NCBI GenBank assembly: GCA_017505625.1
Contig: JAFVOW010000102.1
Span: forward strand, 1-36,981
DNA: 36,981 nt
Reading direction: 5' to 3'
Source of the DNA: Clostridia bacterium
GTDB taxonomy: Bacteria; Bacillota; Clostridia; Christensenellales; Borkfalkiaceae
Shown here: piece by piece, positions 5,233-36,981 of the stretch
How the letters are laid out: the number at the start of each line of letters is the position of its first letter
Numbering within the stretch: the stretch's first letter is position 1
Translations under genes and position numbers: made by a program
The notes under the pieces: model-generated
Database searches by the model: none
Seen by the model: only the letters and a program-made list of their open reading frames with translations
What the model was told of the DNA's origin: nothing

Positions 5233-5244
5233 ATCTATCCTTAT

Positions 5245-7311: not shown

Positions 7312-7328
7312 AAATATTTTCCTATTCT

Positions 7329-18184: not shown

Positions 18185-20764
<2,580 letters not shown>

Positions 20765-20778
20765 TTAACCCATTAAAA

Positions 20779-21516
20779 TTAGTTTAATTTTTCTAAGTGT
20801 TTTAAAATAACGTTAGCGAGTACGCCGTCGCCGTTTTCATCGGCTTTATAAACGTATTTACAATGCTCGCTGTTCATTACTTCTAAGAACACGTTATCTT
20901 TATGCCCGAAATGTTCTAGGGTTTTTACCATTAACATAGTTTGTTCGTATCTACCAAACATATCGTTATCTGATACGATAAATAGCATGGGCGAATACTT
21001 TTCGGCAGTTCCTACAAAATACAAAGGAGCAGTTTCATCAACAATAAGTCTTCTACTATCTTTACCTAATTCTTTTAAAACGTTAAAGTGCGAAGTAGGT
21101 TGACCTGCGTCGTGAATATAAAAATCTATATCAGTGGGCTTTATTCCGTGCGCTTTTAGATATCTATCGTCAAAGCATAGCATCATAGAAATATAACCAC
21201 CCGCACTACTACCGCCTACGAAAATTCGTTTGCATTTTCCGTAGTTACCGATATTATCTTTAAGCCATTTTACTGCTTCGGCACAATCGGTAATAAAATC
21301 GGGGTATTTTGCGTTTGGGTACATAGAGTATTCAACCGAAGCCGTAGCGATATTATTTTTAGCTAAAGTTTTAGCAAAAACTTCTGCTTTTTTATGAGTT
21401 CCCCTTTCAAGCCCACCACCGTGAAAATATATAAACAGATCAAACTCATCGATTTCGGGAAGATGCAAGTCTACGTGCAAATTATCTTTATACTGTAAAT
21501 CTAAATAACTAATCAT
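20779..21516 (-). CDS. Alpha/beta-hydrolase esterase (HGGG + GxSxG type)
   Basis: 245 aa. It has FIYFHGGGLERG (oxyanion HGGG) and FVGGSSAGGY (nucleophile elbow). A good GGGGAG SD site precedes it. There is no signal peptide. Confidence 0.7.
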   Translation of the reverse strand: MISYLDLQYKDNLHVDLHLPEIDEFDLFIYFHGGGLERGTHKKAEVFAKTLAKNNIATASVEYSMYPNAKYPDFITDCAEAVKWLKDNIGNYGKCKRIFVGGSSAGGYISMMLCFDDRYLKAHGIKPTDIDFYIHDAGQPTSHFNVLKELGKDSRRLIVDETAPLYFVGTAEKYSPMLFIVSDNDMFGRYEQTMLMVKTLEHFGHKDNVFLEVMNSEHCKYVYKADENGDGVLANVILKHLEKLN

Positions 21517-21533
21517 ATACTCCCCTTTAAGTT

Positions 21534-22544
21534 TTAAGCATTTTTGAACTCATCTTTAAATATTGCACGAGAGAAAGCCTTTTTCCCGAATTCATCGGTG
21601 ACTACAACGTAAACCCACTCTACTTTGTCAATAGGTGTAAAAGTTCCCTCGGTTACAAACTCGTTTTCGTTTGCTAAAAATACTGCACGATTATGTGAAT
21701 TTGTTACAAAAACTATACGTTTAGCGTTAGAAGTTTTAACGCTAAAACTTCCGTTTTCACAGTCTAACGAAAAAATTTGCGGACCACACGAAGCGTAAAA
21801 TTCTTTGTTTTCCATCGCCTTGATGATAGATTCATAGTCTAACTTATCTGCTAAAATATAGGTAAACCCACCAAATGAATCACATTTAGGACTATTGGTA
21901 TCGTGTGCATTATGGTTGTCATCAGCAGCGATTACTGCCATTTTGCTACCGTGTTTTAACTGATAATCGTAATAATGCTCGTTAAACTCATTATGACCTA
22001 TTGTGTATGCCGAATAGTTGTGGATTTCCATTGCTAAGCAATCTCTATACGCTTCTGAAAAACTTTCGTCTTCAAAAGACCAAGTTGGGTGATTATGACA
22101 AGATAAAAAACCTGCTTTATGAGCGTCTTCTATCATCTTTTTTAAAAACTGTACAGAATATTCACGACTTTCTACGTAGTGGTGGTACTTTAAGGTTTTT
22201 AGTTCTTCTTCCCCAATATATTTCGTATGGTTGGGGGTGTAATATACTAGTTTGTTTTCGGGGGTTTTAGAATAAAAGTTTATATGAGATTGACTGTCCA
22301 ACTTTGCATCGAAAGGAAGATTACGAATATACGCTTCATACGCCGTAATAAACAATATTTCATTATCAGTTAGGTCATTATGCGACACTAAATGCTCGTG
22401 GTCGGTAATAGCAATAACAGAATATCCACGTTTTTTATATTCTTCTTTTACTTGTTCGGGCGTCCACTTGCCATCGGATAAATTTGTATGACAATGAAGA
22501 TTTGCTTTAAACTGTTTTTTAGTTCCGTCTATAAAACGTTTCAT
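21534..22544 (-). CDS. PHP-domain metal-dependent phosphoesterase (CehA/McbA-like)
   Basis: 336 aa. ANLHCHTNLSDGKWTPEQV...VIAITDHEH, later HNHPTW and ADDNHNAHD, form the PHP His/Asp metal ligand pattern. There is a beta-rich C-terminal extension and an AAGGAG SD site. Confidence 0.72.
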   Translation of the reverse strand: MKRFIDGTKKQFKANLHCHTNLSDGKWTPEQVKEEYKKRGYSVIAITDHEHLVSHNDLTDNEILFITAYEAYIRNLPFDAKLDSQSHINFYSKTPENKLVYYTPNHTKYIGEEELKTLKYHHYVESREYSVQFLKKMIEDAHKAGFLSCHNHPTWSFEDESFSEAYRDCLAMEIHNYSAYTIGHNEFNEHYYDYQLKHGSKMAVIAADDNHNAHDTNSPKCDSFGGFTYILADKLDYESIIKAMENKEFYASCGPQIFSLDCENGSFSVKTSNAKRIVFVTNSHNRAVFLANENEFVTEGTFTPIDKVEWVYVVVTDEFGKKAFSRAIFKDEFKNA

Positions 22545-22564
22545 AGTTGCTCTCCTTAAAACTT

Positions 22565-23134
22565 TTACTGGTTGATTTCTTGTTTTTCTTGCTTGTTTCT
22601 ATACCTAATAAGCGCAATTACTGCCGAACAAGTACACATTACGTCGTTGATTAACGCTACTGGATAGAACTTGAAAATTCCGTTCATTACCCAAAAAATA
22701 TACCAACCTAGCGCAAACTGACGCAATCTTTTTTCAGTAGGACGGCTATTGGCAATCACCGCAAACACGCCTGCAACAAGCGGGAAAATATCTTTCCACG
22801 TAGCAAAACTCAAAAGGGAAAATCCAGTCATAATTACCACGAAGAATATAACGATAGGCGTACTTGTAGCCCATTTCCATTTGTCCTTTTTTGTAAATAC
22901 CGCTAACATTATTGCCGTTAGCACACATGCAACTGCGCTAGTTAAATCGCCCTGTACTAAAAAATATGCTATCCAACAAATTTGCCCTACACAACTACAA
23001 GTCAAAATTGCAACTCTTTTTTTAAACTGTACCGAACTTACTGAAAAACACATTGCGAGAATACCGATACCGTAAACTAAAACCATATACCAGTTGCCGA
23101 GTGCATTTTGCAAGGCTAAAACCAATGCATCCAT
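22565..23134 (-). CDS. YgjV-family small polytopic membrane protein (possible solute transporter)
   Basis: 189 aa with about 6 helices. It aligns by eye with my recollection of E. coli YgjV (GIGILAMCFSVSSVQFKKR.. vs GVGVIAFLIGITTFFNRDERRFKK; FPLVAGVFAVIANS.. vs LLPVIGTIVSTWAL). It is the first gene after a promoter. Confidence 0.45.
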   Translation of the reverse strand: MDALVLALQNALGNWYMVLVYGIGILAMCFSVSSVQFKKRVAILTCSCVGQICWIAYFLVQGDLTSAVACVLTAIMLAVFTKKDKWKWATSTPIVIFFVVIMTGFSLLSFATWKDIFPLVAGVFAVIANSRPTEKRLRQFALGWYIFWVMNGIFKFYPVALINDVMCTCSAVIALIRYRNKQEKQEINQ

Positions 23135-23166
23135 TTATCTTTTACCTTTTGTCTATATTAGCTGGT

Positions 23167-23195
23167 ATTATATCATTAACGACTATTTTAGTCAA
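23167..23195 (-). promoter_or_regulatory. Sigma-A promoter with extended -10 for the YgjV-to-PepV operon
   Basis: The minus strand reads TTGACT (23195-23190), a 17-nt spacer ending in TGA, then TATAAT (23172-23167). This gives a TGnTATAAT extended -10. Confidence 0.6.
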
Positions 23196-23243
23196 TGCGT
23201 TGTATATAATCATTACTTATATCAATTTTTTTGTTCAAAAGAC

Positions 23244-23277
23244 AAAAAAGATGAGTGAATTTTCGCTCATCTTTTTT
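23244..23277 (-). terminator. Rho-independent terminator after the SGNH-like gene
   Basis: Hairpin of agatgag(tg) at 23249-23257 paired with (cg)ctcatct at 23264-23272. It is flanked by an A-run and a T-run. It starts 6 nt after the stop at 23283. Confidence 0.7.
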
Positions 23278-23282
23278 CTTTT

Positions 23283-24017
23283 TTATTTTTTATATTTTTC
23301 GGCTATCGCCTTAACACATTTTTTTGCAAGAGAAATTTCTTCTTCGGTTATAGTAACGTCGAAATCTCTAAAAGAATTATCTTCAACGTCTTTCCCCGTT
23401 AGCATTACGTACCACAACAACGCTAAGGCGTAACGGCCCAAGCCGAGACTAGCGTGAAACGTATCACGGTGAACGGTTTTAGCCCCTTCTTTTAGAAGTT
23501 CTTGAAAAACCTCGCCGGACGGAATAATAAACTCTGCGTTTATATCTTTTAACGCTTTGTCATACGCCTTTTTTATGTCGTCAAACATATCTTTTTGGTC
23601 GGTATATCCCATTTTTTCTTGTAGGAGTGAACTTCCCTGTTCGTACGCCCAAGTTTGATGTATAACTTGTTTTGCTTCGGGGGCGTATTTTTTTACGTAT
23701 GCTGAAAGTTCAGTAAGATACGGTTGATAAGTGCCGTAGTCCACACTTACAGCACTGCCTTGTTGAAAGGTTACGTAGTCCCATTTACGAGAAACTAAAG
23801 CTTCTTTAATGCTAACCAAAAAACCCGAAGCGTGTCCGTTAATACACAATTCGTATTTTTTTAAGTCTGCCATAGCGTTTTTGTAGTGGGTTACTAGTTG
23901 GCAACCGCCAATATACAAGTTTACTACTGTTAAATCGGTTTTATCTGCGTGCGCTATCCCGTAAAGATAACGGTTCGCATCATAGGAAAAACTGTTACCT
24001 ATGCAAAGTACGTTCAT
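23283..24017 (-). CDS. SGNH/GDSL-like hydrolase (DUF4886-type), putative carbohydrate esterase
   Basis: 244 aa. The N-terminus MNVLCIGNSFSYDANRYL (block I GNSFS Ser) and the C-terminal RDTFHAS (block V D..H) are as I recall for DUF4886 proteins. There is no signal peptide. Confidence 0.6.
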   Translation of the reverse strand: MNVLCIGNSFSYDANRYLYGIAHADKTDLTVVNLYIGGCQLVTHYKNAMADLKKYELCINGHASGFLVSIKEALVSRKWDYVTFQQGSAVSVDYGTYQPYLTELSAYVKKYAPEAKQVIHQTWAYEQGSSLLQEKMGYTDQKDMFDDIKKAYDKALKDINAEFIIPSGEVFQELLKEGAKTVHRDTFHASLGLGRYALALLWYVMLTGKDVEDNSFRDFDVTITEEEISLAKKCVKAIAEKYKK

Positions 24018-24036
24018 TTTTTTTCTCCATTTATAA

Positions 24037-25347
24037 CTATTTTTCTTTTATCATTATGCACGTGTAGACGGGCATAACGAAAGTTAAATCGGTTGTGGTT
24101 TTAACAAGTTCAGCGTTATGGTCTTTATCTAGAAGATAAATATCGTATTCGGTGTTTTTGTTAAACTCTACTTTTACTTGTACGTTTTCTTTATCATCGT
24201 TATCGGAATAATGCGTAATAAGAGCCATGATTTTACCGTCTTTATCAACGCCAGCTAAAGTATACACGTCTTTAATATTATTCTCAGTACGAATTTCTTT
24301 TTCTAGCTCATAAAATTCGCCACCCCATTTAAGTGCGTAATATCCTTTTAACGGACGGTAAGTATAAAAATCGAACGCACCGTTAAACCCACTAGGACGA
24401 GTGTCGTAATACATAAGCATATCAATAGAAGATTTTTGTGCTTCACTCATAACCGAAGTCATAAAAGTTGCACCCTTTATGCCGTGAACACTTTCTAACG
24501 AATACACGAAAGACTCTCGCCAATCTCTTACGTAGTTCCACTCGTTTAATATACTTTCGGTGTTATAATATCCGTATTTATCAAGTAGTGCACGATACTT
24601 TTCGCCCTTTTCGGAAATATGATAGGGCTCGATTGCATATATGTGCCACGAGAAAAAGTCAATAGGCACTTGTCTTTTTTGCATTTCACAGAGAAAATCT
24701 TCCGCCCAGTCTAGCCTGTACGCCATAGCTGGCCCACCAATTTTTAGGTGCGGAAAACGATTTTTTAGGTGTTTTGCCACTATTTCATAAAAATCAAAAA
24801 ACTGTGCTTTCGTGCCACCCCAACAGCGTTTATTAGGACTGTCGTCGGCATCTAAATCGGGTTCGTTCCAAATTTCCCAGTAAGGCATATCGTGCGTAAA
24901 ACCGTTTCCCCAACCTTCCGTGTAGTGAAGAATAACGTGCTCGCAAATTCTAGCCCATTTATGAAAATCTTTAGGCGGAATAGTGCCGTGTTTCTTTATT
25001 TGGTGTTCTATGGTTTGGCCTAAACGATAAAAGGTTTTCGTGCCCGCTTCAAGCGTACATAATATCGACTCGTCCGTGCAAGCAAAATCGTAATTTTCGG
25101 GATTAGTTTCGTCAGCGTCAAAGTTAGGAAAAATCGCCTTTATGTCGTGGGCGTAAGGGCCACCGTAAATTCCCATCGCATTAGAATCGTGATTTCGTGA
25201 ATACGGAATTTTAGCATCCCTGTATTCTATAAAATTGCTACGATATTGGTCGTTTGCGTGTCTTTTATGAAAAGGCCCGCCGTTCGTTGCGTTTAAAATC
25301 TTAAATTTACCGCAATCTTTTTTTAAATTAAACTTTAAAGTTTCCAT
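24037..25347 (-). CDS. Clan GH-A glycoside hydrolase, GH39-like
   Basis: 436 aa. PYWEIWNEPDL (acid/base Glu in the NEP motif, as in GH39 beta-xylosidases), GGPA, and a candidate nucleophile in SILNEWNYV. There is no signal peptide. The family assignment is tentative. Confidence 0.5.
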   Translation of the reverse strand: METLKFNLKKDCGKFKILNATNGGPFHKRHANDQYRSNFIEYRDAKIPYSRNHDSNAMGIYGGPYAHDIKAIFPNFDADETNPENYDFACTDESILCTLEAGTKTFYRLGQTIEHQIKKHGTIPPKDFHKWARICEHVILHYTEGWGNGFTHDMPYWEIWNEPDLDADDSPNKRCWGGTKAQFFDFYEIVAKHLKNRFPHLKIGGPAMAYRLDWAEDFLCEMQKRQVPIDFFSWHIYAIEPYHISEKGEKYRALLDKYGYYNTESILNEWNYVRDWRESFVYSLESVHGIKGATFMTSVMSEAQKSSIDMLMYYDTRPSGFNGAFDFYTYRPLKGYYALKWGGEFYELEKEIRTENNIKDVYTLAGVDKDGKIMALITHYSDNDDKENVQVKVEFNKNTEYDIYLLDKDHNAELVKTTTDLTFVMPVYTCIMIKEK

Positions 25348-25395
25348 AATATTCCCTACCTATAACGTATTACAAATCCTAATCTCGTAAATATT

Positions 25396-26310
25396 CTATA
25401 ACAAACCTTCTTGCTTCATCCAATCAACTGCACGCTTCATAGTTTCTTCGGGAGTATAACGAGGTCTATATCCTAATAATTTTTTTGCTTTACCTAAATC
25501 GGGTAACATGGGTGCGTACAAGTGCCACCAAGCCACTTTAGAGGTATTAATTTCGTTGATATATCTTTCCCAAGAAATCTTTTCAATCGGTATTTCTACA
25601 CCGTATATTCTTGCGTACGCACGAATAAATTCGCTAGTCGTTAACGAGTACTCTGAACCCACGTTAAAAATTTGTCCCGCCGAAGCAACACGATTCTCTA
25701 CAGCAAGAAAAAACAATTCAGCTATGTCTTCAGCATCGCAAGGACCAATTAAGCACTCTGGCCCGTCGGGAATATATACTGTTTCACCAAGAGCCATTTG
25801 TTTATGAAACGCTATATCTCTACCTCCGTATTGGTCTAGCGGAATTTTACCTGGACCACAAATATTAGGGGGCATAATCGCCGTAAATACGGCTTTGCCG
25901 TTTCCTGATTCTAATAACATTATTTGTATTTCGTCAAAACGCCTTTCGTACGATTTAACAAAACACTTTTCAAAACTGATTTCCGGTGTAGGAACTATTT
26001 TAGGATATCCAAACATCCAAAGCGAGCCACACGCTATAAAGTGCGACACGGTATCAGCTAAAACGTCCCAAACAAGTTTAGCACTTCCGGGGAATTCTAT
26101 AACCACGTCAAAACGTTCTTTACGAAGCACCGTCAAGCTTTCAACTTCACTTGAATTTACGGTGATAAACTTTGCTCCATTAAACGTCGTTTCATCACGT
26201 AGTTTTGTTCCACCACGAGTACCAACGTAAACGTCGTGCCCATTTTTTAATAGTTTTGGTACTAAGAAACTCCCCACGTGCCCTGTACCACCAATTACTA
26301 GTATCTTCAT
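25396..26310 (-). CDS. NAD(P)-dependent epimerase/dehydratase-family protein (extended SDR)
   Basis: 304 aa. It begins MKILVIGGTGHVGSFLVPKLLKNGHDVYV (GxxGxxG Rossmann). The C-terminal LGYRPRYTPEETMKRAVDW is typical of NAD-dependent sugar epimerases. Confidence 0.78.
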   Translation of the reverse strand: MKILVIGGTGHVGSFLVPKLLKNGHDVYVGTRGGTKLRDETTFNGAKFITVNSSEVESLTVLRKERFDVVIEFPGSAKLVWDVLADTVSHFIACGSLWMFGYPKIVPTPEISFEKCFVKSYERRFDEIQIMLLESGNGKAVFTAIMPPNICGPGKIPLDQYGGRDIAFHKQMALGETVYIPDGPECLIGPCDAEDIAELFFLAVENRVASAGQIFNVGSEYSLTTSEFIRAYARIYGVEIPIEKISWERYINEINTSKVAWWHLYAPMLPDLGKAKKLLGYRPRYTPEETMKRAVDWMKQEGLL

Positions 26311-26335: not shown

Positions 26336-28648
26336 CTAAGCTATTCCGAACGCTAGAAGCATTCTATAACCAAAAGTTCGCATGCCGTTATCTAGTAAAA
26401 GTATTGCAAACAACGAACTAACTAGGCTTAATACCAAACCAAAAGTTGCGGTTAACAACAGTTCAAAAAATATCATGCGCCTTACGGTCTTTTTTGACAT
26501 ACCCGAAAGCGAGTAAAGTTCAAACTCTTCACGGCGGGCACGGTAACTTATAACCACGTTATCCACCATGCCGATAACAGCGAAAAGTATCATCATGGGA
26601 AGAATAAACCATCCCGAGTTTATATATAAACTACCCACCACGAACAACCGATTAAATAACTCTTTGCAATCTACTATCGTCGTCATTTCTAGGGCTATGG
26701 CGCTTAGGAGTTGGTTTCTTAACAGTTCTTTTTCTATATTTTCTACTCCGTCCGCTAGAAGGGTGTCGTACTCTAAACCAAAATATTCGCTATTGAATAT
26801 TACGACGTTAATGTTATCTTTTCTCAGCTTAGACACCTTAAATTCGTATTGACTTTCTCCTATTTGAATATAAACGATATCGCCTATTTTTAGGTTTTGT
26901 CTATCGCATATTGCTAATGGAACGAATAATTCATTTCCGGTTGGCGTGCGGTCTAAATCACAAGTATCGCTTAAGGCGTTTACGTCTGATATCGACAACA
27001 TTTTTATACTCATATCGTTAATCGTCCCACTTGTCATGAGTATTGAATAAACATTTTCAACGCTGTCTAATTTTTCTATTTTTTCTCTACAAGAAGCCGT
27101 TGAGTTAGGTATAGCAAAATCGGCGTTTAACCATGACTTATAATTATTGATAACGATATCTGCCGAGTTTACTGCAGTTAATATAGTAAAAATTACGACC
27201 AAAATAACGCTTAAAAGTCTACAACTGTTTTGTAATACTCTAACTTGTTTGACGTTTTTAACTGCATAACCAAAAGAAGCAACCTTAGTTCCGTTATTTT
27301 TAATTTGTCTTTTACAAAGGATTTTATCTATGACTGAAGTTATCCACTTAAAAATTACCGGTACGCCCGTAAAAATAGTTATAAACAACAATATTTCGCT
27401 TATACAACACAAAATAAATCTAGCTTTTACAGGAAGCGTAATGGTTAAAATAAAGGTCAGCAAAAACGCAGGTAACGTATACTTATATAGAGAAATTTGT
27501 TTTTTTAGTTTTTTTGGTCTGCGTTCGGAAATTATAAACACGAACGCCGTAAACACGGATATGACAAGTGTTAAGGCAGAACTTATTACAAAGGATAAAG
27601 GGCTAAATTTTGCCGTAAAATACCTAAACCCAACCACTCTATATATAAGTTTTGAAAACGGTATAGAAAGTGCTAAACCGATAGGTGCGCCTATAAGCCA
27701 ATACAGACCAATTTCTGCATACTGCAACAAATTCATTTTACTAGCTGTAGCGCCTAAAGCCTTAAACAATGCGTTTTCGCCTGTTCGTTCGTTTGAGATA
27801 ATATAAAAACAGCAAAATACCACTGCCACGGAAAGCATTAGCGACAAGGCGATTAAAACGTAAACGATAGTATTCATAGGGCCTATCTCGCCATCTTGCT
27901 CCATAATATTTGCAACGTTTTGAAATGTCTTGTCTGAAAAATCAGCATCGTTTTTTAGCGCAGTTATACAGTCGTTAACAAAGCCATCTTCTAAAACGTT
28001 TACGTAAAGGGTGTTGCTCGGCTTAAAACTATCGCCTAGAGAAGATACTAGTAACGAATCGCTTGCCAATAGCCTCATTACACCCGTTACGTTTACCATT
28101 AACTCGTAACTACCCATAAACGGTATTTTGGAAATAGCCTTTATGGTATACGTTTTGTCGTAGCCTAAAACGTTTACGGTGAAAGAATCGCCAAGACCAA
28201 GATTATATTTTTCGGCAAAATCTAAAGACACTAAAGCGCTTTCGTTAACGCTTGAACTAGTTATGGGCAAATGCTCTATAAACTCAAATTCAAATACTTG
28301 TTCTACGTCGTAAAAGTCTACTGCAACGCCGAAAGCCGTTTGATTAGTTTGAGAAAAGTAGACGGGCAAATCGTATAAGCCCACTACTTTTGCTTTGTTT
28401 TCTAGTATTTCTTCGGCTTTATCCGAAAACATAAATCTTGATTTTGACGTAGCGTTTAAAGACACGGTAAAATCAGCCGTGCCGTATTCAACCACTTGTC
28501 GTTCGTCGGTTTCGCCGTTGATAAAAATCCCCACGTTTATACAAGCAGTAATTACAACCATGGCTAGCGCCAAAGTCAATATGAGTATTAGCGGTTGTAT
28601 AGGTTTGCGCTTTATACTGTTTTTTAAGTGTTTGAAAAACAGTTTCAT
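26336..28648 (-). CDS. ABC transporter permease, FtsX/MacB type, internally duplicated
   Basis: 770 aa. The pattern is TM1 (PLILILTLALAMVVITACINVGIF), a roughly 200-aa extracytoplasmic domain, then a 3-TM bundle. The same pattern repeats in the second half. The start overlaps the ATPase stop (ATGA). Confidence 0.8.
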   Translation of the reverse strand: MKLFFKHLKNSIKRKPIQPLILILTLALAMVVITACINVGIFINGETDERQVVEYGTADFTVSLNATSKSRFMFSDKAEEILENKAKVVGLYDLPVYFSQTNQTAFGVAVDFYDVEQVFEFEFIEHLPITSSSVNESALVSLDFAEKYNLGLGDSFTVNVLGYDKTYTIKAISKIPFMGSYELMVNVTGVMRLLASDSLLVSSLGDSFKPSNTLYVNVLEDGFVNDCITALKNDADFSDKTFQNVANIMEQDGEIGPMNTIVYVLIALSLMLSVAVVFCCFYIISNERTGENALFKALGATASKMNLLQYAEIGLYWLIGAPIGLALSIPFSKLIYRVVGFRYFTAKFSPLSFVISSALTLVISVFTAFVFIISERRPKKLKKQISLYKYTLPAFLLTFILTITLPVKARFILCCISEILLFITIFTGVPVIFKWITSVIDKILCKRQIKNNGTKVASFGYAVKNVKQVRVLQNSCRLLSVILVVIFTILTAVNSADIVINNYKSWLNADFAIPNSTASCREKIEKLDSVENVYSILMTSGTINDMSIKMLSISDVNALSDTCDLDRTPTGNELFVPLAICDRQNLKIGDIVYIQIGESQYEFKVSKLRKDNINVVIFNSEYFGLEYDTLLADGVENIEKELLRNQLLSAIALEMTTIVDCKELFNRLFVVGSLYINSGWFILPMMILFAVIGMVDNVVISYRARREEFELYSLSGMSKKTVRRMIFFELLLTATFGLVLSLVSSLFAILLLDNGMRTFGYRMLLAFGIA

Positions 28649-29298
28649 TTTACTATTAGTCCGTCCTTAAGCCTAATAATTCTATCGCCATAACAACTTA
28701 CTTTTTCGCTATGAGTAACTTGTATTATAGTTGTTTTTTGTTCTTTGTTAACACGTTTTAATAGTTCCATAACCTTAACTTCCATTACGCTGTCAAGCGC
28801 TCCCGTAGGTTCATCTAGAATAACCACGCTTGGTTTATAGCAAAGCGCCCTTGCGATTGCAACACGCTGACATTGTCCACCTGAAAGTTGGCCTGGGTAT
28901 TTATTTAAGAAAGGTTTAATTTCTAGTTCAGTAGTTAAAAAATCAAAATACTCTAAAGTTTCATTATTAATTTTTTTCGATAACGTTACGGGTAGCATTA
29001 TATTATCTTTAGCGGTAAGCGTAGAAATAAGTTTAAACGACTGAAAGACAAAACCCATATAGGAACGCCTTTTTCCCGCCAAAGCGTCGTCGGTAAAATC
29101 AAAAGGGTTTTGACCTTCCCACAATACGTTGCCGTCGTCAGGACGTAAAAATCCGCCTATGATACTTAAAAGGGTACTTTTGCCACTACCACTAGCACCC
29201 ATAATGGATACGAATTCTTTATCGGAAAAAGTAAGGTCTATGCCTTTAAGAACTTTTTCACCGTTATAACTTTTGGTAACGTTTTGTATTTGTATCAT
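28645..29298 (-). CDS. ABC transporter ATP-binding protein (MacB/LolD-like)
   Basis: 217 aa. It carries Walker A GASGSGKST, the signature LSGGQCQRVAIARAL, Walker B VVILDEPTGALD and an H-loop VTHS. The start overlaps the lipoprotein stop (ATGA). Confidence 0.95.
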   Translation of the reverse strand: MIQIQNVTKSYNGEKVLKGIDLTFSDKEFVSIMGASGSGKSTLLSIIGGFLRPDDGNVLWEGQNPFDFTDDALAGKRRSYMGFVFQSFKLISTLTAKDNIMLPVTLSKKINNETLEYFDFLTTELEIKPFLNKYPGQLSGGQCQRVAIARALCYKPSVVILDEPTGALDSVMEVKVMELLKRVNKEQKTTIIQVTHSEKVSCYGDRIIRLKDGLIVK

Positions 29299-30545
29299 AG
29301 TTCTACCCCGTAAAAAAGCGCAGGGAAAATTCCCGCAAAATAGTTTTTAAGTGTTTTTATAAAATCGTCGCCATCTACCGAATTTTTTAGCGTAGTAACG
29401 TCGGTTTTTATAATCGTAGCGTAATAGTTTGTATATTTTACACCATAGTATTCGGTTGCGAAACCGTTATAGTAAGCAGTATCAAAATTTAACGCTGTTA
29501 GACTTTCAAAAGAACTCCAATCATCGTTAGTGAAATTAACGAAAATCTCTCTTATAAATAAATCCTTTTCTCCCTGTCTTAAATAATTTGCGTGATTTTC
29601 GCTAAACTTTTTTTGAGTTTTATTAAACAAACTAATAAAGTCGTTCATTTTGTTTGCGACTAAATTTAAGTCCCCATTTGCCGAAAATTTTTCTATAAGC
29701 TGAGAAAGGTATACGTCTGAAATGGAAAATTTAGTTATCATTGATAAAACTAGTTTCCAGCCTTTTACCGACATGTTTATACTAGAAAAATCGGGGGTTT
29801 TTAGCATTAACGCTATCTCGGACGTAGTGAGATTTTTGATTGCCGAAGTAGATTCAGCGCCACCTAACACCAATTCGCCTAAAAAATACGCTAGCTTTAT
29901 AGTGGGAATAAAATTAGATAAAGTGATTTCTTCAGTAAGAGTTTTTCTGTCAGCCAATGCTTTTTCTGCATCGTCCAATTTGTATTTCCAACCGTAGTCC
30001 TGGTATTCCTTAAGATTTTTTTCGTATAAATATCCGTAATAATAATCGCTAAAATTATAAATTATGGTAGCCGTTGCATCAATGCTAAACGACGACGATA
30101 AAAGTCCTAAAAACTTTCTTAAATTAGTTATGTCTTGAGCGCTTGTAGTACCTGACTGAACGCTAGAAAATGCGCTAGCGTAGTTTTGGCTATTATTTTC
30201 AATATTTTCAAAAACTGATGTGTAAGCTTTTTCCGTTAGTCCTTGGTTTTCGGTAATTTTTGAAATTTCGTTAGCGTGGGCAGATAATAAGTTTAACGTG
30301 TTAGCCGATACGTTAGAGTTAATGCTTGCTTTATAGATATCAATTAAAAGTTGTTTTATAGTTTCCGTTGCGTAGGTTTTAGTTTGGTTTGAATATGGTG
30401 CTACGTTTTGGTTTTCTAGTGGTATACCCTTGTGTGGTGGGTTAGAATTATTATTGCAACCTAAAAAAACGGTGCTAGACACCGTTAACACTAAGATAGC
30501 AAATATAACGCATAGCGTTTTTTTGAAATTTTTAATAATTCCCAC
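29295..30545 (-). CDS. Lipoprotein of unknown function (first gene of the ABC operon)
   Basis: 416 aa. The signal peptide plus lipobox is KKTLCVIFAILVLTVSSTVFLGC followed by NNNSNPP. The mature part is N/S/T/Y-rich and looks helical, with no domain I recognise. The start is GTG, preceded by AAGGTG-tttt. Confidence 0.7.
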   Translation of the reverse strand: MGIIKNFKKTLCVIFAILVLTVSSTVFLGCNNNSNPPHKGIPLENQNVAPYSNQTKTYATETIKQLLIDIYKASINSNVSANTLNLLSAHANEISKITENQGLTEKAYTSVFENIENNSQNYASAFSSVQSGTTSAQDITNLRKFLGLLSSSFSIDATATIIYNFSDYYYGYLYEKNLKEYQDYGWKYKLDDAEKALADRKTLTEEITLSNFIPTIKLAYFLGELVLGGAESTSAIKNLTTSEIALMLKTPDFSSINMSVKGWKLVLSMITKFSISDVYLSQLIEKFSANGDLNLVANKMNDFISLFNKTQKKFSENHANYLRQGEKDLFIREIFVNFTNDDWSSFESLTALNFDTAYYNGFATEYYGVKYTNYYATIIKTDVTTLKNSVDGDDFIKTLKNYFAGIFPALFYGVEL

Positions 30546-30578: not shown

Positions 30579-30607
30579 ATTGTATCATACTAATAACGTA
30601 ATTTCAA
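30579..30607 (-). promoter_or_regulatory. Sigma-A promoter with extended -10 for the lipoprotein/ABC operon
   Basis: The minus strand reads TTGAAA (30607-30602), a 17-nt spacer ending in TGA, then TACAAT (30584-30579). Confidence 0.55.
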
Positions 30608-30624
30608 TAAAATTTTATTTATAC

Positions 30625-30664
30625 GCTTAAAATAAAATATCCCCGAAGACTTTTGTCTTCGGGG
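30625..30664 (-). terminator. Rho-independent terminator after the giant ORF
   Basis: A 10-bp GC-rich stem, ccccgaagac (30641-30650) paired with gtcttcgggg (30655-30664), with a 4-nt loop. The minus-strand tail is atattttatttt. It lies 25 nt after the TAG stop. Confidence 0.85.
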
Positions 30665-30689
30665 ATAAGTTTTGATTGTTAGTTTTTAA

Positions 30690-33600
30690 CTAGTTAGCCC
30701 AATCTACATATCCATTAAGTTCTTTACCATATAAACCAAAGAAAGTATCTTTAATAGTTTCTCTCGAATCGGTATCGGCTAAAAGATATACACATTCAAC
30801 GTTTACAAACGTTAGGTCGATATATCCATGATAACTAAATAGTACCATATTACCAGTGCCTACCGTATCGTAAATAGCACTTTCAAACGTATTAGTGCTA
30901 TCAGTAACAATAACTTCAGAACCGTTAATACCGTAAACGATTAGGTTGTAACCGTTAAGGTCGATAGAGTAACCTGCAAGGTCAATCTCAATGTTCTCAG
31001 CGTAGAGATAAACGTCTCTATCTAATACCCAATCATCAGTGAGCCAAATTTTTAGGTCTTCAAACTTTTCGCAATGTACACAATACCAACCGTGATATCT
31101 ACCACTAGCGTTTAACGAAGTACTTGTAAATCCTTTAGTTTCTTCGATATCAAAATCATAGTAGGTATCTAAGTCGGCTTCTGCTGTATATCCGCCACTA
31201 TGATAATGGTCAGTCCAACTACCAAGTTGTTTATCGCAAATTAAACAAACGGTGGTAGATTTTACACCTTCTTCAGTACAGCTTACAGTTTCACTTCTAA
31301 CAGAATGAATGTAATCGTGTTTATCGGAATCTGTTGAACCAATGTAATTACCTGCCTTGTCGTAAACGTACCAAGTAATTTCACAAGTTTGAACGTCGTA
31401 GTAACCTACTTTAGCGCCACAATTTTCATAATCTTTACGAGAATAGATTTCAACGTAAACTACGTCGCTGTAAGTATGTTCAGAACCGTCGGCATGGTCA
31501 ACATATTGCTTTTCTATAATGAATTCAACACGTAAATCCATAGTACCGTCAGCGTAAATATTACCTTCGGGTAATACACCAATAGCCTTTTCAGGGAAAG
31601 AAGTATAATCATCTGATACTTTACCTATGTAGGGAGCAACTAACTTCTTGAACAAACGTAAATCCCAATCGCTAGAAGGATTATCATTTCTATTTATATA
31701 AGCGTATTCAAATTCACCGTCTTCAAAATATAACTCAACGTCAAGGTCGCCGTTCTCATATTTATTTGGTGCAACCTTGTAAGCCGTAGTTGCGCTTAAT
31801 TCAACGTAATTAACTTCTTTACAATGCGGGCATCCTCCAATAGATACGCTTCCTAACCATAAATCTTCTACTTTAATAAGGTCTTCACTAAATACTAAAC
31901 GTAAATAATCTAAATATTTAGCGTCGTCTTCGGTTATTGCTTCGTCATCGTCGTAGTACACGGTTTCGATAGTAGACCATCTACTCAAGCATTCGTCGTA
32001 TTTGTAAGTGAGTTTGTATTCAAACGGTTCATAATCGGTTTCACCGGTTACTTCGTTAAATTGACCTTGATACGTTAAAACGTCGTGATTTATAGCGTAG
32101 CAATGATTTGAAGCTTCGTTATAGCAGTAGATGGTGTATTCCATTTTTTCCAAACCACACCAATGACATACGTATCTGCTTGCTGAAACTGATAAGAAAT
32201 CTTCTTCAACAAAACCTTCTACGTTAAGAGCTTTAACTGCATCTATAGAGCTATCGAAGTTTTCAATGGGTGCCCAACTGAGATAACAATTGTGATAGTT
32301 CAATCCATGGTCTTCATCGCCACAACAAATACACGTATTTTTGTAAGCTTCTACTTCGCCACAAAGGGTTTCGCCTATGAACTCATACTCATTTATGTAA
32401 ACACAATCGTAGTAAGTATAAGTTTCAGCATCGCCACAATCTTTACAAGTAAAGGTTGCTTTGTAACCGTCTTCACAAGTTTCACCTAGTTTTTCAATGG
32501 TTATTTCATCGTCATGAACACCTTCTTCCATACGGCGGATTTCACCGGTAACTAGATTTGCATTAATACGGATATCTATTTGTCTTGAAACGTAAGTGGG
32601 TTCGTCGTATTGGGGTCTACCTTCTTCGTCGTATTCGTTTACACTCGCCTCAGCAAGAACTGTTACTGCAACAGAAATCCAATCTTTACAAATATCACTA
32701 ACCGTGATTACACCGTTAGGAACACAACCGTCTACGATAGGAATAAGTGAAACGTATTCAGTATATCTACCGATGCCGTATTCAACTTTTTCTTTAATTT
32801 CTAGGTACTTGCCATTTCCGTCTTCAGCATCCTTACATTCAAATGCTAGTATGCCACCATCAGTATAAATTTCGTCTTCGTAATCTACTTTAACGCTTTC
32901 AATCTTGCTTACTAATTCGGTAACAGTTTCTTCTAGTTCGCCTTCAAATTCTTCAGACTTAGTGAAATCGATAGTTACGTCAAAGTCAGCATCGATATAA
33001 GACTTAACAGTGTTTATGATAATTCCTTCAACACTTTCAGGGTCTAACATTACTAAGTATTTATCAACGTCAACGTCTACGTCAACTTTTTCGGTTTCGC
33101 CGTTTTCGCCTTTGGTAACATCAAATTCTACGATACCGTCGAATACCACGGTTCCTTCTGTATCTTCAATAGAAGTACTGAACATATCGCCAACCATAGA
33201 AACTAACGCTTCAAAGTAAACGGTTTCAGTGGTTTCTTCTTGAGTAAAGCCAATGATATATTCCATTTTTTGAGTTATTTCAGTACCTTCAGCTTCAGTT
33301 GTTGAAACCATAGTAATTTTGTATTTACCGTCGGAAAGCGTTTCTACTTTAACGTCGGTAGCGATTTTGTTTTCGCCTACAACAACTTCTAACTTAGTAT
33401 TGTAATCTGTTGCGTCTACGCCTTTATAACTTAAGGTTGCAACCTTATTAAGCATTACGTATACGTCAGCAACAGTGAATCCTTCTTCATCAGTACCAAC
33501 AACTACTTTACCCATTTCAACTGATTCAGTGCCTTCGCCTGCAGTTAAAATAGCAGAAACGGTCTTATCTTCGCTATTAGCATCAAAGGTTAAGTTGTAA

Positions 33601-36600
33601 CCCATTGCAGTAGTAACACTGCCGTTGATGATGGTTGCAAGGTCGGTAATATCCCAACTTGCAACAACTTCAGCAAATAATTCGTCAGCTACTTCTATTA
33701 CTGCATTAAAGTCGAAAGTTTCGCCTTCGAACGCCATACCAAGACTATACATTTCTACGTATTCGTAAATTGATGAATCGTATTTATAAAGCACTGCTTC
33801 AACAACTGAATCTTCGGTTACGTAGTTGAGTATCAACTTATATCCCATAGCTTGAACAGTTGCAAGCTTACCGGTTTCGGTATTTTCAAGTTTAATTTCA
33901 GCAAATAAGTTTTCACCCATTAGAACGCTGATAGTACCGGTTTGGTCAGCTTCAGAAACGTCTGCTTCTACAGTATAACCTAATACGCTTAAGATACCGT
34001 CGAACGCAAGTAAGCCGTCTTCGTCAATAGCGTAATTCAAGCCAATCTTAATTAACTCTTCAATTTCGAATAAATATTTATAATCTTCGCCGTTATGAGT
34101 TAAGGTTGCAGTGTAAACTGCTTCGTATAGTTCAGTTTGTTCGTTATATACGCTTAAAGTAGCTAAACCTTCTTTAGTTTCGGGGGTGTAATCTACTTTT
34201 AATTCGTAAAGTCCGTAGTAACCTACCATAGTATATACGCCTTCAGTAACGTTGTATACTACTGAAATTCCGTCAGGAAGTTCGCCGTAAACTGAAGTGA
34301 TAGCGCCTTCAGCGTCAACTAGTACTTGAACGGTTACCATTTCGTTTGCCATTGCATACAAGCCCTTAAGCGATGCACTTAAAGCAAATGTGTCTTCAGC
34401 ATAAATGGGGCCGTTTTCGTCTTCGCCAATTACAGGTTTGTATTCCATATCTTTATATACTAATACATTAAATAATTGGTCGATTGTTAAAGTCTTAACT
34501 TGCTCAGCGTAACCGTCTACCATCGTTTCGAACATTTCAATCATTTGTTCTTTGGTCATAGGACCTGGGGTAACGCCACCACCTATAACATCATCATTTA
34601 TCGTGTCTACCGACATTTTGTCAATAAATTCCTTATCGCCAACAACTCCGCCGATAGGACCGTCTACAACACCACCGTTAGGACCTTCTCCGCCTATAGT
34701 GCCACCGCTAGGACCAGCAGTTCCGGTCATAGACATTATAATATCTATAATGGTTAATTCGTAGTTTTCTTCGAGTTTTTCTTGGATGCTAATTTCAACA
34801 CCAGCAACCATTTCAATATAGGTTTCAATTAATGCGAACGTATAATCAACGTCAAACTTGTATTCTTCAGCAAGAGCAATCGCCGAATCAGCAATTTCTT
34901 TTACCGTAAGAGTGGGAACAGATTTGAGTTTTTCTACTATAGTATCAACCGTGCCTTCGCCGTATTCTTCTTCGATAACTTCAGCAAGAGTCTTTTCTGC
35001 AAAAGTATCGGTTATAGTTGCTAGGCCGTTAACGTCTAGAGTGTAAAGTGTACCCGAACCGTCTTGTAATTCTTCTTCTGCGATTAGATATTCGTCGAAG
35101 AATTCAACAAATAGTGCACTTGCGTCAACGTCTTCCTTGCTTGCTAATGCTTTCTTAACAGCTTCTACGAAAGGAGCGTAGTTATCAAAAGCCGTTTCGC
35201 TAAACGTGTAAAGTTCGATTGCAGTGTAAATAGTTTCTACCGTGATTGCGCCGTTAGTAGATTGACTTAATAATTGGTCTAACGCTTTTAATCCTATGGT
35301 AGAACCAAATTCACCATTGTTATTTACGTCTACGTAAACGATGCCTTCGTTAACGTAAACGTCAAACGAAACTACCTTTTCTTCTGCATTTTCATCAACG
35401 AAAGTTTTAATATCTCCTTCGCCAGTGAAAACGTTTTCGGTAAGAACAACTTCAAATTGTATAAAGCCATAAGGTTCGCCGTCTTTAATGCTTATAGATG
35501 CTTTAGCTACGTTGATTGCAACTTCGTTTCTAAAGCCATCACCATACGCATAATCCGTGCTTTCTTTATAAACGGTAATCTTTGAACCTTCACCAACTAC
35601 TAGACTCATATCAGAATCGCCTACAAGTAAGCAAATTAATTGGTATAGCGAATCAGATTGAAGTTCTAATGCGGGAATCTTTGTTTCATAGCTATTACCA
35701 CAAACTGAACAGGTGTGCTTCTTTATACCCGTTGCAATTTGGCTAGGTAATTGAACGATAGATTCTTCATAAGCGTGAGGTTTAGTGGGAACGTTTACAG
35801 TATAACTATCTTCACAACCGTCTTCAGAACACTTATAAACCTTGTAACCAGCTTCGGTACAAGTAGCCACTTTTTCGTCTATTACAACGTAAGTATGTAC
35901 TTTTTCTAAAATAGTGGCATCTTCAACTACTTCCTGCTTAACGTCTTGAGGAATTTCAACTTTACTTGCAACTTCGCTAGAAACTAAAACGTTTTGAATA
36001 GCATCTGCATTTTCAGTTTCTAAAACGGTGTCTTCAGCACTAACTACTACACGACCTGCAGTTGCATGGTCGCCACTAACTGAAACTTTTGTTCCGGTAG
36101 CGGAAGCGCCTACTACTACGTTTGAAACAACACCTTGAACGTCAAGAGTGGTTTTTGCTTTTAAGTCTACGTTATCAACAACTGCGGTGGGCGCAATGCT
36201 GATTTCTGCCGATTCAGTTTCGCTGGTTGCTTCGGCTGTAACGCTTACTTTTTTAACTTCGCCGGTAACTGCTACTTTAGCTACGGCTTTAACTTCTACG
36301 TCTTCAACAGTACCTGCAATATTTACGTCAGCTTTTGCTTGAATTGCAAGACTAGTAACTTTCGCTGTGGGCGAAATAACTACCTTAGCACCGGCTGCTG
36401 ACTGACTAACGCTAAGTTTACCGAGTTTGGTGCCTTCGCCTGCTTCTAAACTACCGTTACCTGCAAGCGAAATGTCAGCCATTTCAGAATAACTTATTTG
36501 AATATGCGTATCAGATTTAACAGTACCTTTACCGCTACTCGTTACGTTAGAAAAACGAATCGTTTGGCTTGCAGCCTCTAATTCGTAGTCTACAGTCTCA

Positions 36601-36851
36601 GCGATGACTGCAGTATCAAATTCAATATCGCCGTTTGGTACTGAAATATCAAGAACACCGTTTTTAACAGTACCATTCTTGATTGTTACCAATGCGCCTT
36701 CGGTTTCCGATGCGATTTTTAGCGTGAAACCGTTAAGGTCTAACGCATAACCACCTAAATCCATCGTAACCGGCTTGTTGAGAGTAACGACTTTGTCAGA
36801 ACCGTTTGTCGCTTTTACGTCATCATTAGAAAGAACGTATTCTTGTGTCAA
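30690..36851 (-). CDS. Giant (2,053 aa) hyper-acidic protein with many CxxC motifs, function unknown; 5' end uncertain
   Basis: Uninterrupted 6.2-kb ORF followed by a strong terminator. Only short antisense ORFs overlap it. The annotated start is TTG with no SD site. See findings for the domain-level description. Confidence 0.8.
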   Translation of the reverse strand: MTQEYVLSNDDVKATNGSDKVVTLNKPVTMDLGGYALDLNGFTLKIASETEGALVTIKNGTVKNGVLDISVPNGDIEFDTAVIAETVDYELEAASQTIRFSNVTSSGKGTVKSDTHIQISYSEMADISLAGNGSLEAGEGTKLGKLSVSQSAAGAKVVISPTAKVTSLAIQAKADVNIAGTVEDVEVKAVAKVAVTGEVKKVSVTAEATSETESAEISIAPTAVVDNVDLKAKTTLDVQGVVSNVVVGASATGTKVSVSGDHATAGRVVVSAEDTVLETENADAIQNVLVSSEVASKVEIPQDVKQEVVEDATILEKVHTYVVIDEKVATCTEAGYKVYKCSEDGCEDSYTVNVPTKPHAYEESIVQLPSQIATGIKKHTCSVCGNSYETKIPALELQSDSLYQLICLLVGDSDMSLVVGEGSKITVYKESTDYAYGDGFRNEVAINVAKASISIKDGEPYGFIQFEVVLTENVFTGEGDIKTFVDENAEEKVVSFDVYVNEGIVYVDVNNNGEFGSTIGLKALDQLLSQSTNGAITVETIYTAIELYTFSETAFDNYAPFVEAVKKALASKEDVDASALFVEFFDEYLIAEEELQDGSGTLYTLDVNGLATITDTFAEKTLAEVIEEEYGEGTVDTIVEKLKSVPTLTVKEIADSAIALAEEYKFDVDYTFALIETYIEMVAGVEISIQEKLEENYELTIIDIIMSMTGTAGPSGGTIGGEGPNGGVVDGPIGGVVGDKEFIDKMSVDTINDDVIGGGVTPGPMTKEQMIEMFETMVDGYAEQVKTLTIDQLFNVLVYKDMEYKPVIGEDENGPIYAEDTFALSASLKGLYAMANEMVTVQVLVDAEGAITSVYGELPDGISVVYNVTEGVYTMVGYYGLYELKVDYTPETKEGLATLSVYNEQTELYEAVYTATLTHNGEDYKYLFEIEELIKIGLNYAIDEDGLLAFDGILSVLGYTVEADVSEADQTGTISVLMGENLFAEIKLENTETGKLATVQAMGYKLILNYVTEDSVVEAVLYKYDSSIYEYVEMYSLGMAFEGETFDFNAVIEVADELFAEVVASWDITDLATIINGSVTTAMGYNLTFDANSEDKTVSAILTAGEGTESVEMGKVVVGTDEEGFTVADVYVMLNKVATLSYKGVDATDYNTKLEVVVGENKIATDVKVETLSDGKYKITMVSTTEAEGTEITQKMEYIIGFTQEETTETVYFEALVSMVGDMFSTSIEDTEGTVVFDGIVEFDVTKGENGETEKVDVDVDVDKYLVMLDPESVEGIIINTVKSYIDADFDVTIDFTKSEEFEGELEETVTELVSKIESVKVDYEDEIYTDGGILAFECKDAEDGNGKYLEIKEKVEYGIGRYTEYVSLIPIVDGCVPNGVITVSDICKDWISVAVTVLAEASVNEYDEEGRPQYDEPTYVSRQIDIRINANLVTGEIRRMEEGVHDDEITIEKLGETCEDGYKATFTCKDCGDAETYTYYDCVYINEYEFIGETLCGEVEAYKNTCICCGDEDHGLNYHNCYLSWAPIENFDSSIDAVKALNVEGFVEEDFLSVSASRYVCHWCGLEKMEYTIYCYNEASNHCYAINHDVLTYQGQFNEVTGETDYEPFEYKLTYKYDECLSRWSTIETVYYDDDEAITEDDAKYLDYLRLVFSEDLIKVEDLWLGSVSIGGCPHCKEVNYVELSATTAYKVAPNKYENGDLDVELYFEDGEFEYAYINRNDNPSSDWDLRLFKKLVAPYIGKVSDDYTSFPEKAIGVLPEGNIYADGTMDLRVEFIIEKQYVDHADGSEHTYSDVVYVEIYSRKDYENCGAKVGYYDVQTCEITWYVYDKAGNYIGSTDSDKHDYIHSVRSETVSCTEEGVKSTTVCLICDKQLGSWTDHYHSGGYTAEADLDTYYDFDIEETKGFTSTSLNASGRYHGWYCVHCEKFEDLKIWLTDDWVLDRDVYLYAENIEIDLAGYSIDLNGYNLIVYGINGSEVIVTDSTNTFESAIYDTVGTGNMVLFSYHGYIDLTFVNVECVYLLADTDSRETIKDTFFGLYGKELNGYVDWAN
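30942..30983 (-). repeat. C-terminal copy of the DLxGYxxDLNGxxL module (aa 1957-1970, DLAGYSIDLNGYNL)
   Basis: Matches the N-terminal copy at 10 of 14 residues. It shares the 13-nt DNA string gaccttaacggtt (coding strand). Confidence 0.7.
34560..34727 (-). other. Gly/Pro-rich low-complexity hinge within the giant ORF (aa 709-764)
   Basis: TGTAGPSGGTIGGEGPNGGVVDGPIGGVVGDK...DDVIGGGVTPGP. The Pro-rich antisense ORF 34552..34764 is its mirror image. Confidence 0.7.
36720..36761 (-). repeat. N-terminal copy of the DLxGYxxDLNGxxL module (aa 31-44, DLGGYALDLNGFTL)
   Basis: See the C-terminal copy at 30942..30983. Confidence 0.7.
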
Positions 36852-36981
36852 AGTGTATGTATCTGTAAAAACGCATTGCGCCCCACGACGTTCAGTGCAA
36901 GAATAAAGAAGTTCAATTTTAGAGCAAACGAAACTTTTGAGGCTGAGTTGTGGCTACTAAACGACACGCAACAAGCGGTTA
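36852..36981 (-). other. Unresolved region: either 5' coding extension/remnant of the giant ORF or the 3' end of an upstream gene
   Basis: In the giant ORF's frame, the sequence stays open for 34 codons above the TTG (PQLSLKSFVCSKIELLYSCTERRGAQCVFTDTYT), back to a double stop TAG TAG at 36954-36959. A second frame is open from the window edge and ends in a TGA that overlaps the TTG start (TTGA). Confidence 0.3.

Follow-up and report, generated by a model that had tools for sequence, protein, structure and literature searches.

The reverse strand of the 36,981-nucleotide stretch analysed here (the window), a contig of a Clostridia bacterium, carries at positions 30690-36851 an open reading frame (ORF) for a giant, acidic protein. 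This ORF is the truncated copy of a real gene that is intact elsewhere, whose product is N-terminally anchored and family-specific, and which is linked to a cassette encoding a lipoprotein and an ATP-binding cassette (ABC) transporter of type VII. On balance, we favor the view that the giant protein is exported by Sec and stays tethered by its N-terminus as a fibrous surface protein, probably adhesive and possibly partnered with the ABC system.

The ORF encodes 2,053 residues and opens with a TTG, the first after two in-frame stops, with neither a Shine-Dalgarno site before it nor a hydrophobic segment after it. An exact look-up of its product in a contig index returned no match. The lipoprotein encoded downstream of the giant gene (P0129), however, was located on seven contigs, two of which, L019 (59 kb, from an ENA assembly) and L020 (from a Logan assembly), are independent of the window assembly. 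In BLASTN comparisons L019 matches the window at 99.99% over 17.6 kb and L020 at 100% over 13.6 kb; in both cases the match starts at window position 36865 and runs downward, and divergence is complete upstream of this point. The window thus ends in two features:

36866-36981, no strand assigned: foreign contig end, 116 nt unrelated to L019 and L020 (BLASTN and alignment)
30690-36865, reverse strand: giant gene, 5'-truncated, encoding residues 46-2103 of the complete 2,103-residue protein

The foreign segment stands where the giant gene should have its promoter, its Shine-Dalgarno site and its first 45 codons, and represents either a chimeric end of the assembly or a breakpoint specific to this strain. 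It has no Rfam match, no second copy in the sequences compared and no exact match in JGI metagenomes, and a group II intron, an insertion sequence end or another RNA were rejected as its identity on these grounds.

The complete gene in L019 and L020 encodes 2,103 residues, and the 2,053 that are common with the window are identical. The 50 additional N-terminal residues include a 21-residue hydrophobic signal anchor. In both contigs the protein starts MSTTRKVSRTVTSIIVAVLMLALAGVITYVSLNLFKSND, with MSTTRKVSRTVTSIIVAVLMLALAGVITYVSL forming the signal anchor, and the complete N-terminus in L019 reads MSTTRKVSRTVTSIIVAVLMLALAGVITYVSLNLFKSNDSIFVSDSDTYT, followed by LTQEYV. A basic n-region precedes the hydrophobic segment, which carries no lipobox, and residues 6-36 are the sole hydrophobic segment of the complete protein (Kyte-Doolittle values up to 2.6), which has a mass of 231 kDa, an isoelectric point (pI) of 4.1 and a net charge of -252. 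In L019 the gene is preceded by an AAAGGAG Shine-Dalgarno site and by a consensus promoter, TTGACA-N17-TATAAT. The absence of a recognisable export or anchoring signal, reported in the initial annotation, is therefore true of the truncated ORF only and is an artefact of the contig end. The protein held by NCBI is the truncated 2,053-residue form, while ENA and Logan hold the 2,103-residue form; public annotation can now be corrected, since the NCBI entry lacks the first 50 residues, the anchor among them.

A frameshift was also considered as the cause of the missing signal, in the form of a base slip in a T5 or G4 run approximately 20 nt upstream of the TTG, which would have joined the ORF to a weakly hydrophobic, GTG-started leader, MSFSSHNSASKVSFALKLNFFILALNVVG; the GTG of this leader had aligned with the ATG of P0002. 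We rejected this idea because L019 and L020 differ wholly from the window beyond 36865 and carry the anchor, the Shine-Dalgarno site and the promoter. Upstream of the giant gene, L019 encodes a P-type cation ATPase (893 residues) and a 112-residue ORF with no Pfam match (L019:2-3359), and these genes therefore show what the window would hold had the contig gone on.

The giant protein belongs to a family of which we collected 18 full-length members, ranging from 1,669 to 2,555 residues and 23-54% identical to the window protein. Each of the 17 homologues opens with an N-terminal signal, either a signal anchor (6 proteins) or a Cys in a lipobox-like context after a hydrophobic stretch (11 proteins); their N-termini typically comprise a Met, a K/R-rich n-region and then about 20 hydrophobic residues. 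The reality of the gene is supported by these 18 intact members and by the identical sequence in the independent ENA and Logan assemblies, and expression signals are present in the form of the L019 promoter and Shine-Dalgarno site and of a strong terminator in the window.

When a profile built on the first 310 residues was run, with no word filter, over 1.84 billion representatives, 113 proteins matched at E<=1e-3. Only 28 of them were matched at E<=1e-30, which indicates that the family is small. A pattern-limited scan of 185,579 species representatives yielded 14 loci. All giant genes lie in metagenome-assembled genomes from the gut that bear the labels Christensenellaceae, Ca. Scatosoma, Ca. 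Coproplasma or uncultured Clostridia; the 14 loci come from human, Hadza and goat caecum samples. A scan of JGI metagenomes for close relatives found none.

The earlier statement that the protein cannot be placed in a characterised family holds after profile, PDB sequence and Foldseek searches, all of which were empty or non-significant. Nothing significant was found in Pfam, NCBIfam, PHROGs or PADLOC, and a search of PDB sequences with the family profile gave chance matches only. Foldseek comparisons of both half-models with the PDB, and of the C-terminal half with BFVD, returned generic all-beta folds with TM-scores of at most 0.30 and root-mean-square deviations of about 12-60 Å; the queries being whole multi-domain models of approximately 1,000 residues, this is a weak test. 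For the N-terminal half, weak matches to beta-helix proteins were found, namely ChiW (5gzt, probability 0.87), a tailspike depolymerase (8opz) and Ag43 (7kob), which in this whole-half-model query were non-significant (best E at least 0.012, TM-score at most 0.30) and were accompanied by no Pfam beta-helix match. More distant solenoid matches (profile positions 140-330, E 1e-24 to 1e-4) fall in proteins of 500-1,100 residues; SLH domains are present in 5 of the 10 such relatives tested, and one carries a Pectate_lyase_5 'adhesive domain' just under threshold. These associations in distant rung relatives point to the cell surface.

In order to describe the architecture of the protein, AlphaFold2 was run on its two halves with 18-sequence alignments, giving mean predicted local distance difference test (pLDDT) values of 72 and 71. 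Residue numbers of the parts refer to the 2,053-residue window ORF unless called full-length. From N- to C-terminus, and all on the reverse strand, the following parts can be distinguished:

35922-36851: predicted N-terminal beta-solenoid stalk, residues 1-310, AlphaFold2 pLDDT ~90
36720-36761: N-terminal DLxGYxLDLNGxTL module, residues 31-44, within the first solenoid rungs
35664-35906: His/Cys knuckle pair, residues 316-396, predicted beta-hairpins, pLDDT 70-85
34722-35654: beta-sandwich-like then helical region, residues 400-710, pLDDT 40-85 (moderate to low)
34563-34721: disordered Gly/Pro-rich linker, residues 711-763, pLDDT ~30
32832-34562: acidic, largely beta middle region, residues 764-1340, holding weakly repeated (L/M)GY units
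31044-32831: Cys/His-rich C-terminal region, residues 1341-1936, predicted all-beta, pLDDT 60-90
30693-31043: C-terminal cap domain, residues 1937-2053, with homology to the first part of the N-terminal solenoid
30942-30983: DLAGYSIDLNGYNL, within the C-terminal cap

The alternating V/A/T/S pattern that had been read as beta-solenoid rungs is indeed modelled as a solenoid, with short alternating strands spaced approximately 17-26 residues apart, and this is the best-conserved part of the family. The matching modules at the two ends of the protein, DLGGYALDLNGFTL at residues 31-44 and DLAGYSIDLNGYNL at residues 1957-1970, are identical at 9 of 14 positions. In a tiled self-comparison, residues 1-44 align locally with residues 1937-1970 (E=2.6e-4), and the DLxGYxxDLNG module is kept in 18/18 family members at the N-terminus and in 17/18 at the C-terminus. 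The last ~130 residues are again modelled with a pLDDT of ~90. Proteins that have only the cap module in common with the giant protein carry no informative domains.

Between these ends, the region spanning residues 400-710 has conserved motifs, including GEGTxDxL...LPxxTVxEIA. The proposed Gly/Pro hinge is borne out by composition, residues 701-800 holding 18 Gly and 5 Pro, and by pLDDT values below 50 over residues 711-763; the linker differs in length and sequence among homologues, with EKEP repeats in P0003, for instance. The rest of the protein after the linker is modelled as largely long antiparallel beta structure. Three (L/M)GY(T/K/N)(V/L) unit starts are found, at residues 957, 1002 and 1083. 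The tiled self-comparison shows a resemblance between residues 978-1020 and 1054-1101 (E=0.007), a weak repeat signal; the count of (L/M)GY units in the middle region differs between relatives. We note that P0003 has one more central unit than P0002, of ~47 residues and starting with MGY, and that P0006 (L002:8001-15668) carries three near-identical solenoid rung blocks of ~44 residues. Acidic residues outnumber basic ones, as first observed, with D+E at 18.8% and K+R at 6.4%. The protein has no LPXTG, SLH or RTX motif. Regular-expression searches found no LPxT[GAS] or NPxTG, there is no hydrophobic C-terminal segment for sortase anchoring, and no GGxGxD motif was found; SLH (PF00395) and CW_binding_2 (PF04122) repeats are absent as well, Pfam at E<=1 giving only a chance DUF6911 match.

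The Cys motifs listed in the initial annotation are all present, and the refuting condition set there, a lack of conservation among homologues, does not apply, since 24 of the 33 Cys are kept in at least 15 of the 18 aligned sequences. H319, H359, H1446, H1845 and H1884 are conserved in the same alignment. A regular-expression scan identified a recurring unit, H-x11-12-C-x9-10-C-x2-4-C, in three canonical copies starting at residues 319, 1446 and 1845, together with a degenerate copy at residues 359-384 (H359, C381, C384). The first canonical module comprises H319, C331, C341 and C346, and the His and Cys residues of the 316-396 region are invariant in 18/18 sequences, except for C346 (13/18). 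The two other modules (H1446/C1459/C1469/C1472 and H1845/C1858/C1869/C1872) lie in the C-terminal Cys/His-rich region. Conserved CxxC pairs are found in this region at 1507/1510, 1562/1565, 1674/1677 and 1924/1927, and the residues of these two modules and of the pairs are kept in 15-18 of the 18 sequences. In P0005 and P0006 we counted 10-13 Cys modules, as compared to 3-4.

The module extends well beyond the family. Among the candidates scored in a search with the family profile, 595 proteins matched, and many of these are giant and extracellular and come from Clostridia of the gut. When 110 non-family matches were re-scanned, nearly all matched stretches fell on the His/Cys module (profile positions ~375-470), with up to 40 stretches per protein. 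These proteins carry tandem copies of approximately 39 residues, with a median of 19 and a maximum of 55 per protein, and the pattern H-x-[YW]...[AP]TC[TS]ExG...CxxCG...IPAxGH (P0019, P0025-P0128; window 35664-35906). They also carry LRR_5, Flg_new, Big_2, FN3, transglutaminase, dockerin or CWB2 domains, a domain company that is indicative of extracellular contexts. The Pfam and NCBIfam copies searched hold no model covering the module, and zinc-finger Pfam matches to it were all sub-threshold (E >= 0.027). It looks like an undefined extracellular His/Cys repeat family, perhaps metal-binding; coordination of a metal by one His and three Cys would be plausible for secreted proteins of strict anaerobes.

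Directly downstream of the giant gene, in the window as in L019, follow genes for a lipoprotein, an ATPase and a duplicated permease. The features concerned, all on the reverse strand, are:

30638-30667: intrinsic terminator directly after the giant gene, its 13-bp stem holding 7 G-C pairs and followed by a T-tail
30579-30607: promoter-like site for the lipoprotein/ABC operon (TTGAAA, 17 nt, TG-n-TACAAT), consensus match only
29295-30545: orphan lipoprotein, 416 residues, signal ending VFLGC then NNNS, no library match
28645-29298: predicted type VII (MacB/LolD/BceA-like) ABC ATPase, 217 residues, Pfam ABC_tran, E=2.8e-31
26336-28648: predicted duplicated FtsX/MacB-type permease, 770 residues, Pfam FtsX twice, E=1.9e-17

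The lipoprotein matched nothing in Pfam, NCBIfam, PHROGs, PADLOC or PDB sequences; all its orthologues carry a Cys-containing lipobox, and its homologues were located only beside giant genes. For the ATPase, the top NCBIfam models are DarD, LolD, MacB, DevA, FtsE and YbbA, all scoring under their equivalog cut-offs, and the top PDB matches are MJ0796, BceA, LolD, YtrE, MacB and YbbA. Hydropathy analysis of the permease indicates approximately 10 transmembrane segments, with extracytoplasmic domains at about residues 45-258 and 500-670; its orthologues show a weak or faint MacB_PCD match, and PDB sequence matches to FtsX and MacB are weak. We take this duplicated layout to resemble that of YbbP, to which there is no sequence match. 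Judged by sequence, the ATPase and permease can be assigned to the type VII (MacB-superfamily) ABC transporters. They do not fall into the LolCDE type, there being no LolC, LolE or LolA family match and a score of 179 bits with the LolD model, against a cut-off of 308.

That lipoprotein and MacB-type ABC genes accompany the giant gene is a conserved feature and no coincidence of the window contig. The cassette follows the giant gene in 10 loci besides window/L019 (L001, L002, L003, L006-L010, L024, L025), that is, in 10/10 of the closer relatives (31-52% protein identity) having downstream sequence, while the outer flanking genes differ. In the spacers of L001, L002, L003, L024 and L025, a hairpin followed by a T-run is present in 5/5, and extended -10 boxes in 4/5 (L001, L002, L024, L025), none being evident in the 70-nt L003 spacer. 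The adjacency is therefore conserved although the two units are transcribed separately.

A surface location, at first suggested on the basis of size and neighbourhood, is now better supported by the anchors in every homologue, by the occurrence of the Cys module in proteins with extracellular domains and by the SLH domains of distant rung relatives. In the scheme that we favor, Sec would insert or export the giant protein, the N-terminus staying tethered in the cytoplasmic membrane and the remaining ~2,060 residues lying outside the cell. Moving outward, a rigid beta-solenoid stalk would be followed by the His/Cys knuckles, with their putative metal binding, and a flexible Gly/Pro linker, then by a variable acidic beta-rich spacer, a Cys-rich distal region and a second beta-helix-like cap at the end. 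The task of such a fiber would likely be the binding of glycans, other cells or host material, or cell aggregation, a weaker step than the topology; by analogy with other fibrous surface proteins of such build, an adhesive or aggregative role is the most likely one. The orphan lipoprotein and the duplicated type VII ABC would be a dedicated extracytoplasmic partner system, and no chance neighbour. Such a partnership is plausible because type VII ABC transporters act via their extracytoplasmic domains on dedicated partners, such as EnvC, LolA, MacA-TolC and TesA (PMC5985334, PMC12646458); we nevertheless consider it less likely than not.

Several observations weigh against this interpretation. 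The searches turned up no domain whose binding or catalytic function is known, and the adhesin reading comes from the architecture. The models of the giant protein have no significant Foldseek match, and AlphaFold2 confidence is moderate outside residues 1-310 and the last ~130 residues. Within the flanks available, the cassette is not nearby in six distant members with downstream sequence (L004, L012, L013, L014, L018, L026). The giant gene and the ABC operon, with a terminator and a promoter-like site between them, are transcribed separately. Lastly, if the divergence at 36865 were a biological breakpoint, the window strain would hold an inactive copy, its start being missing.

The alternative that fares best goes further and makes the giant protein the client of a new envelope machine, in which the duplicated type VII ABC would act on the anchor with the lipoprotein as adaptor; ATP-driven mechanotransmission would extract, release or hand over the protein, as in LolCDE, or switch its conformation, as in FtsEX-EnvC. 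The adjacency of the three components in 10/10 closer-clade loci with differing flanks, at 31-52% identity, is consistent with this idea, as is the restriction of lipoprotein homologues to the cassette, and lipid or single-transmembrane anchors are objects handled by LolCDE- or YbbAP-type transporters (PMC5985334, PMC12646458). The neighbouring ATPase and FtsX permease with large extracytoplasmic domains fit the type VII systems (LolCDE-LolA, FtsEX-EnvC/PcsB, MacAB-TolC, YbbAP-TesA), in which gene linkage to extracytoplasmic proteins is likewise conserved (PMC5985334, PMC12646458), but the candidate partners differ, as neither the orphan lipoprotein nor the anchored 231-kDa protein shows similarity to LolA, EnvC, MacA or TesA. 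Moreover, the separate transcription units and the outer clade with no cassette nearby speak against a machine, and in Firmicutes MacB-type transporters often serve in peptide resistance or efflux with no relation to the genes around them. We hold it unlikely that the giant protein, the lipoprotein and the ABC form an undescribed Christensenellales envelope machine that extracts, releases or conformationally controls a 231-kDa surface fiber; if true, it would add a fifth kind to the type VII ABC partner systems with EnvC, LolA, MacA-TolC and TesA.

The protein could instead be a structural component of the envelope (S-layer-like, sheath or spacer protein) and no adhesin. Its size, its very acidic nature (pI 4.1) and a consensus promoter and strong terminator that would suit high expression are in line with such a role, as are the SLH domains of distant rung relatives; but the protein itself has no SLH, CWB2 or other wall-binding module, its 33 Cys and single N-terminal transmembrane anchor would be atypical for a bacterial S-layer protein, and the family is missing from most related genomes, as reflected in the yield of the pattern-limited scan. 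We regard this reading as improbable. A surface-tethered polysaccharide depolymerase or lyase with a catalytic beta-solenoid, tied to the nearby glycan genes, is highly improbable: the weak Foldseek similarity to ChiW, the tailspike and Ag43 and the presence of glycoside hydrolase (GH) families GH2 and GH39 and of exopolysaccharide genes within the window are offset by E values that are all at least 7e-3 and TM-scores no higher than 0.30 (no higher than 0.17 with ChiW and the tailspike), by the lack of any lyase or GH family match to the giant protein in Pfam, NCBIfam and other profile libraries, and by glycan genes that are not conserved neighbours. Finally, the first in-frame start in the window (a TTG with no hydrophobic segment or Shine-Dalgarno site) might suggest a hyper-acidic zinc-ribbon protein that lacks an export signal and stays in the cytoplasm, or else a dead gene. 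This reading is contradicted by the two otherwise identical assemblies that hold an intact 2,103-residue gene with anchor, Shine-Dalgarno site and promoter, and by the anchors in all homologues.

The tethered surface protein that we favor can be compared to three further groups of proteins. With the giant fibrous proteins of gut Firmicutes (InlB B-repeat, BspA-type leucine-rich repeat, Big_2, FN3) it has in common the ~39-residue H-x-C-x-CxxC tandem module, the giant size and acidity, an export signal at the N-terminus and an extended, modular architecture rich in beta structure. Unlike them, it lacks their Pfam domains, LPXTG, SLH, CWB2 and dockerin, it has three canonical and one degenerate Cys module as compared to a median of 19, and its remaining ~95% is family-specific. 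The predicted N-terminal parallel beta-solenoid of ~300 residues would act as a stalk, as in beta-helix adhesins and stalks (Ag43, the ChiW stalk, Pectate_lyase_5 proteins, SLH-anchored solenoids), with weak profile similarity of its rungs to SLH-anchored proteins and weak Foldseek similarity to 5gzt, 8opz and 7kob, none of it significant. In contrast to these adhesins, the anchor is an N-terminal transmembrane segment or lipid and there is no C-terminal barrel or SLH domain; the organism belongs to the class Clostridia and no outer-membrane secretion partner is present. RTX and LapA-type adhesins, which use type 1 secretion, are likewise giant, very acidic, repeat-containing and encoded beside ABC genes, but the window protein has no GGxGxD nonapeptides or C-terminal secretion signal, carrying an N-terminal Sec-type anchor instead, and the neighbouring ABC is of the FtsX/MacB type and not of the HlyB type, with no membrane fusion protein or TolC.

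Further from the giant gene, the reverse strand of the window holds an exopolysaccharide or capsule-type biosynthesis locus (696-11623), with an EpsG-family polymerase, GT1, GT2 and GT4 glycosyltransferases, a sugar-transfer ATP-grasp protein, a 2-hydroxyacid dehydrogenase, an acyltransferase_3 and an HpcH/HpaI aldolase; for two ORFs, 2953-4239 and 7329-8900, Pfam gave no match. The polysaccharide locus, which had been named among the neighbours suggesting a surface role, is not a conserved neighbour of the giant gene, the flanking genes differing in relatives. A glycan-utilisation cluster on the same strand (18185-26310) comprises a GH2 beta-galactosidase, an esterase (BD-FAE/Abhydrolase_3), a PHP-domain protein, a YgjV membrane protein, a DUF4886 protein, a GH39-like protein and an NAD epimerase; it is found in L019 too, and not beside the giant gene in other species. 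The P0005 locus (L025: 1742-5494, 18793-19557) is flanked by SpoIIR, a faint SipL match, Spo0A and a cell-wall hydrolase, and since sporulation genes flank P0005, some carriers of giant genes are probably spore formers.

Christensenellaceae, gut bacteria that are heritable and associated with health, form flocs and grow physically associated with methanogens. Giant uncharacterised surface proteins are common in gut Firmicutes. To our knowledge, the surface biology of the Christensenellaceae is essentially unknown, and a literature search on Christensenella surface proteins returned nothing relevant. The present analysis defines a family of giant tethered surface proteins that is lineage-restricted and has no detectable sequence or structural relatives, as well as a widespread extracellular His/Cys tandem module for which the Pfam and NCBIfam copies searched hold no model. 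It also reveals a conserved, previously undescribed pairing of these proteins with an orphan lipoprotein and a duplicated MacB-type ABC, which could extend the type VII ABC partner systems to Gram-positive-type envelopes.

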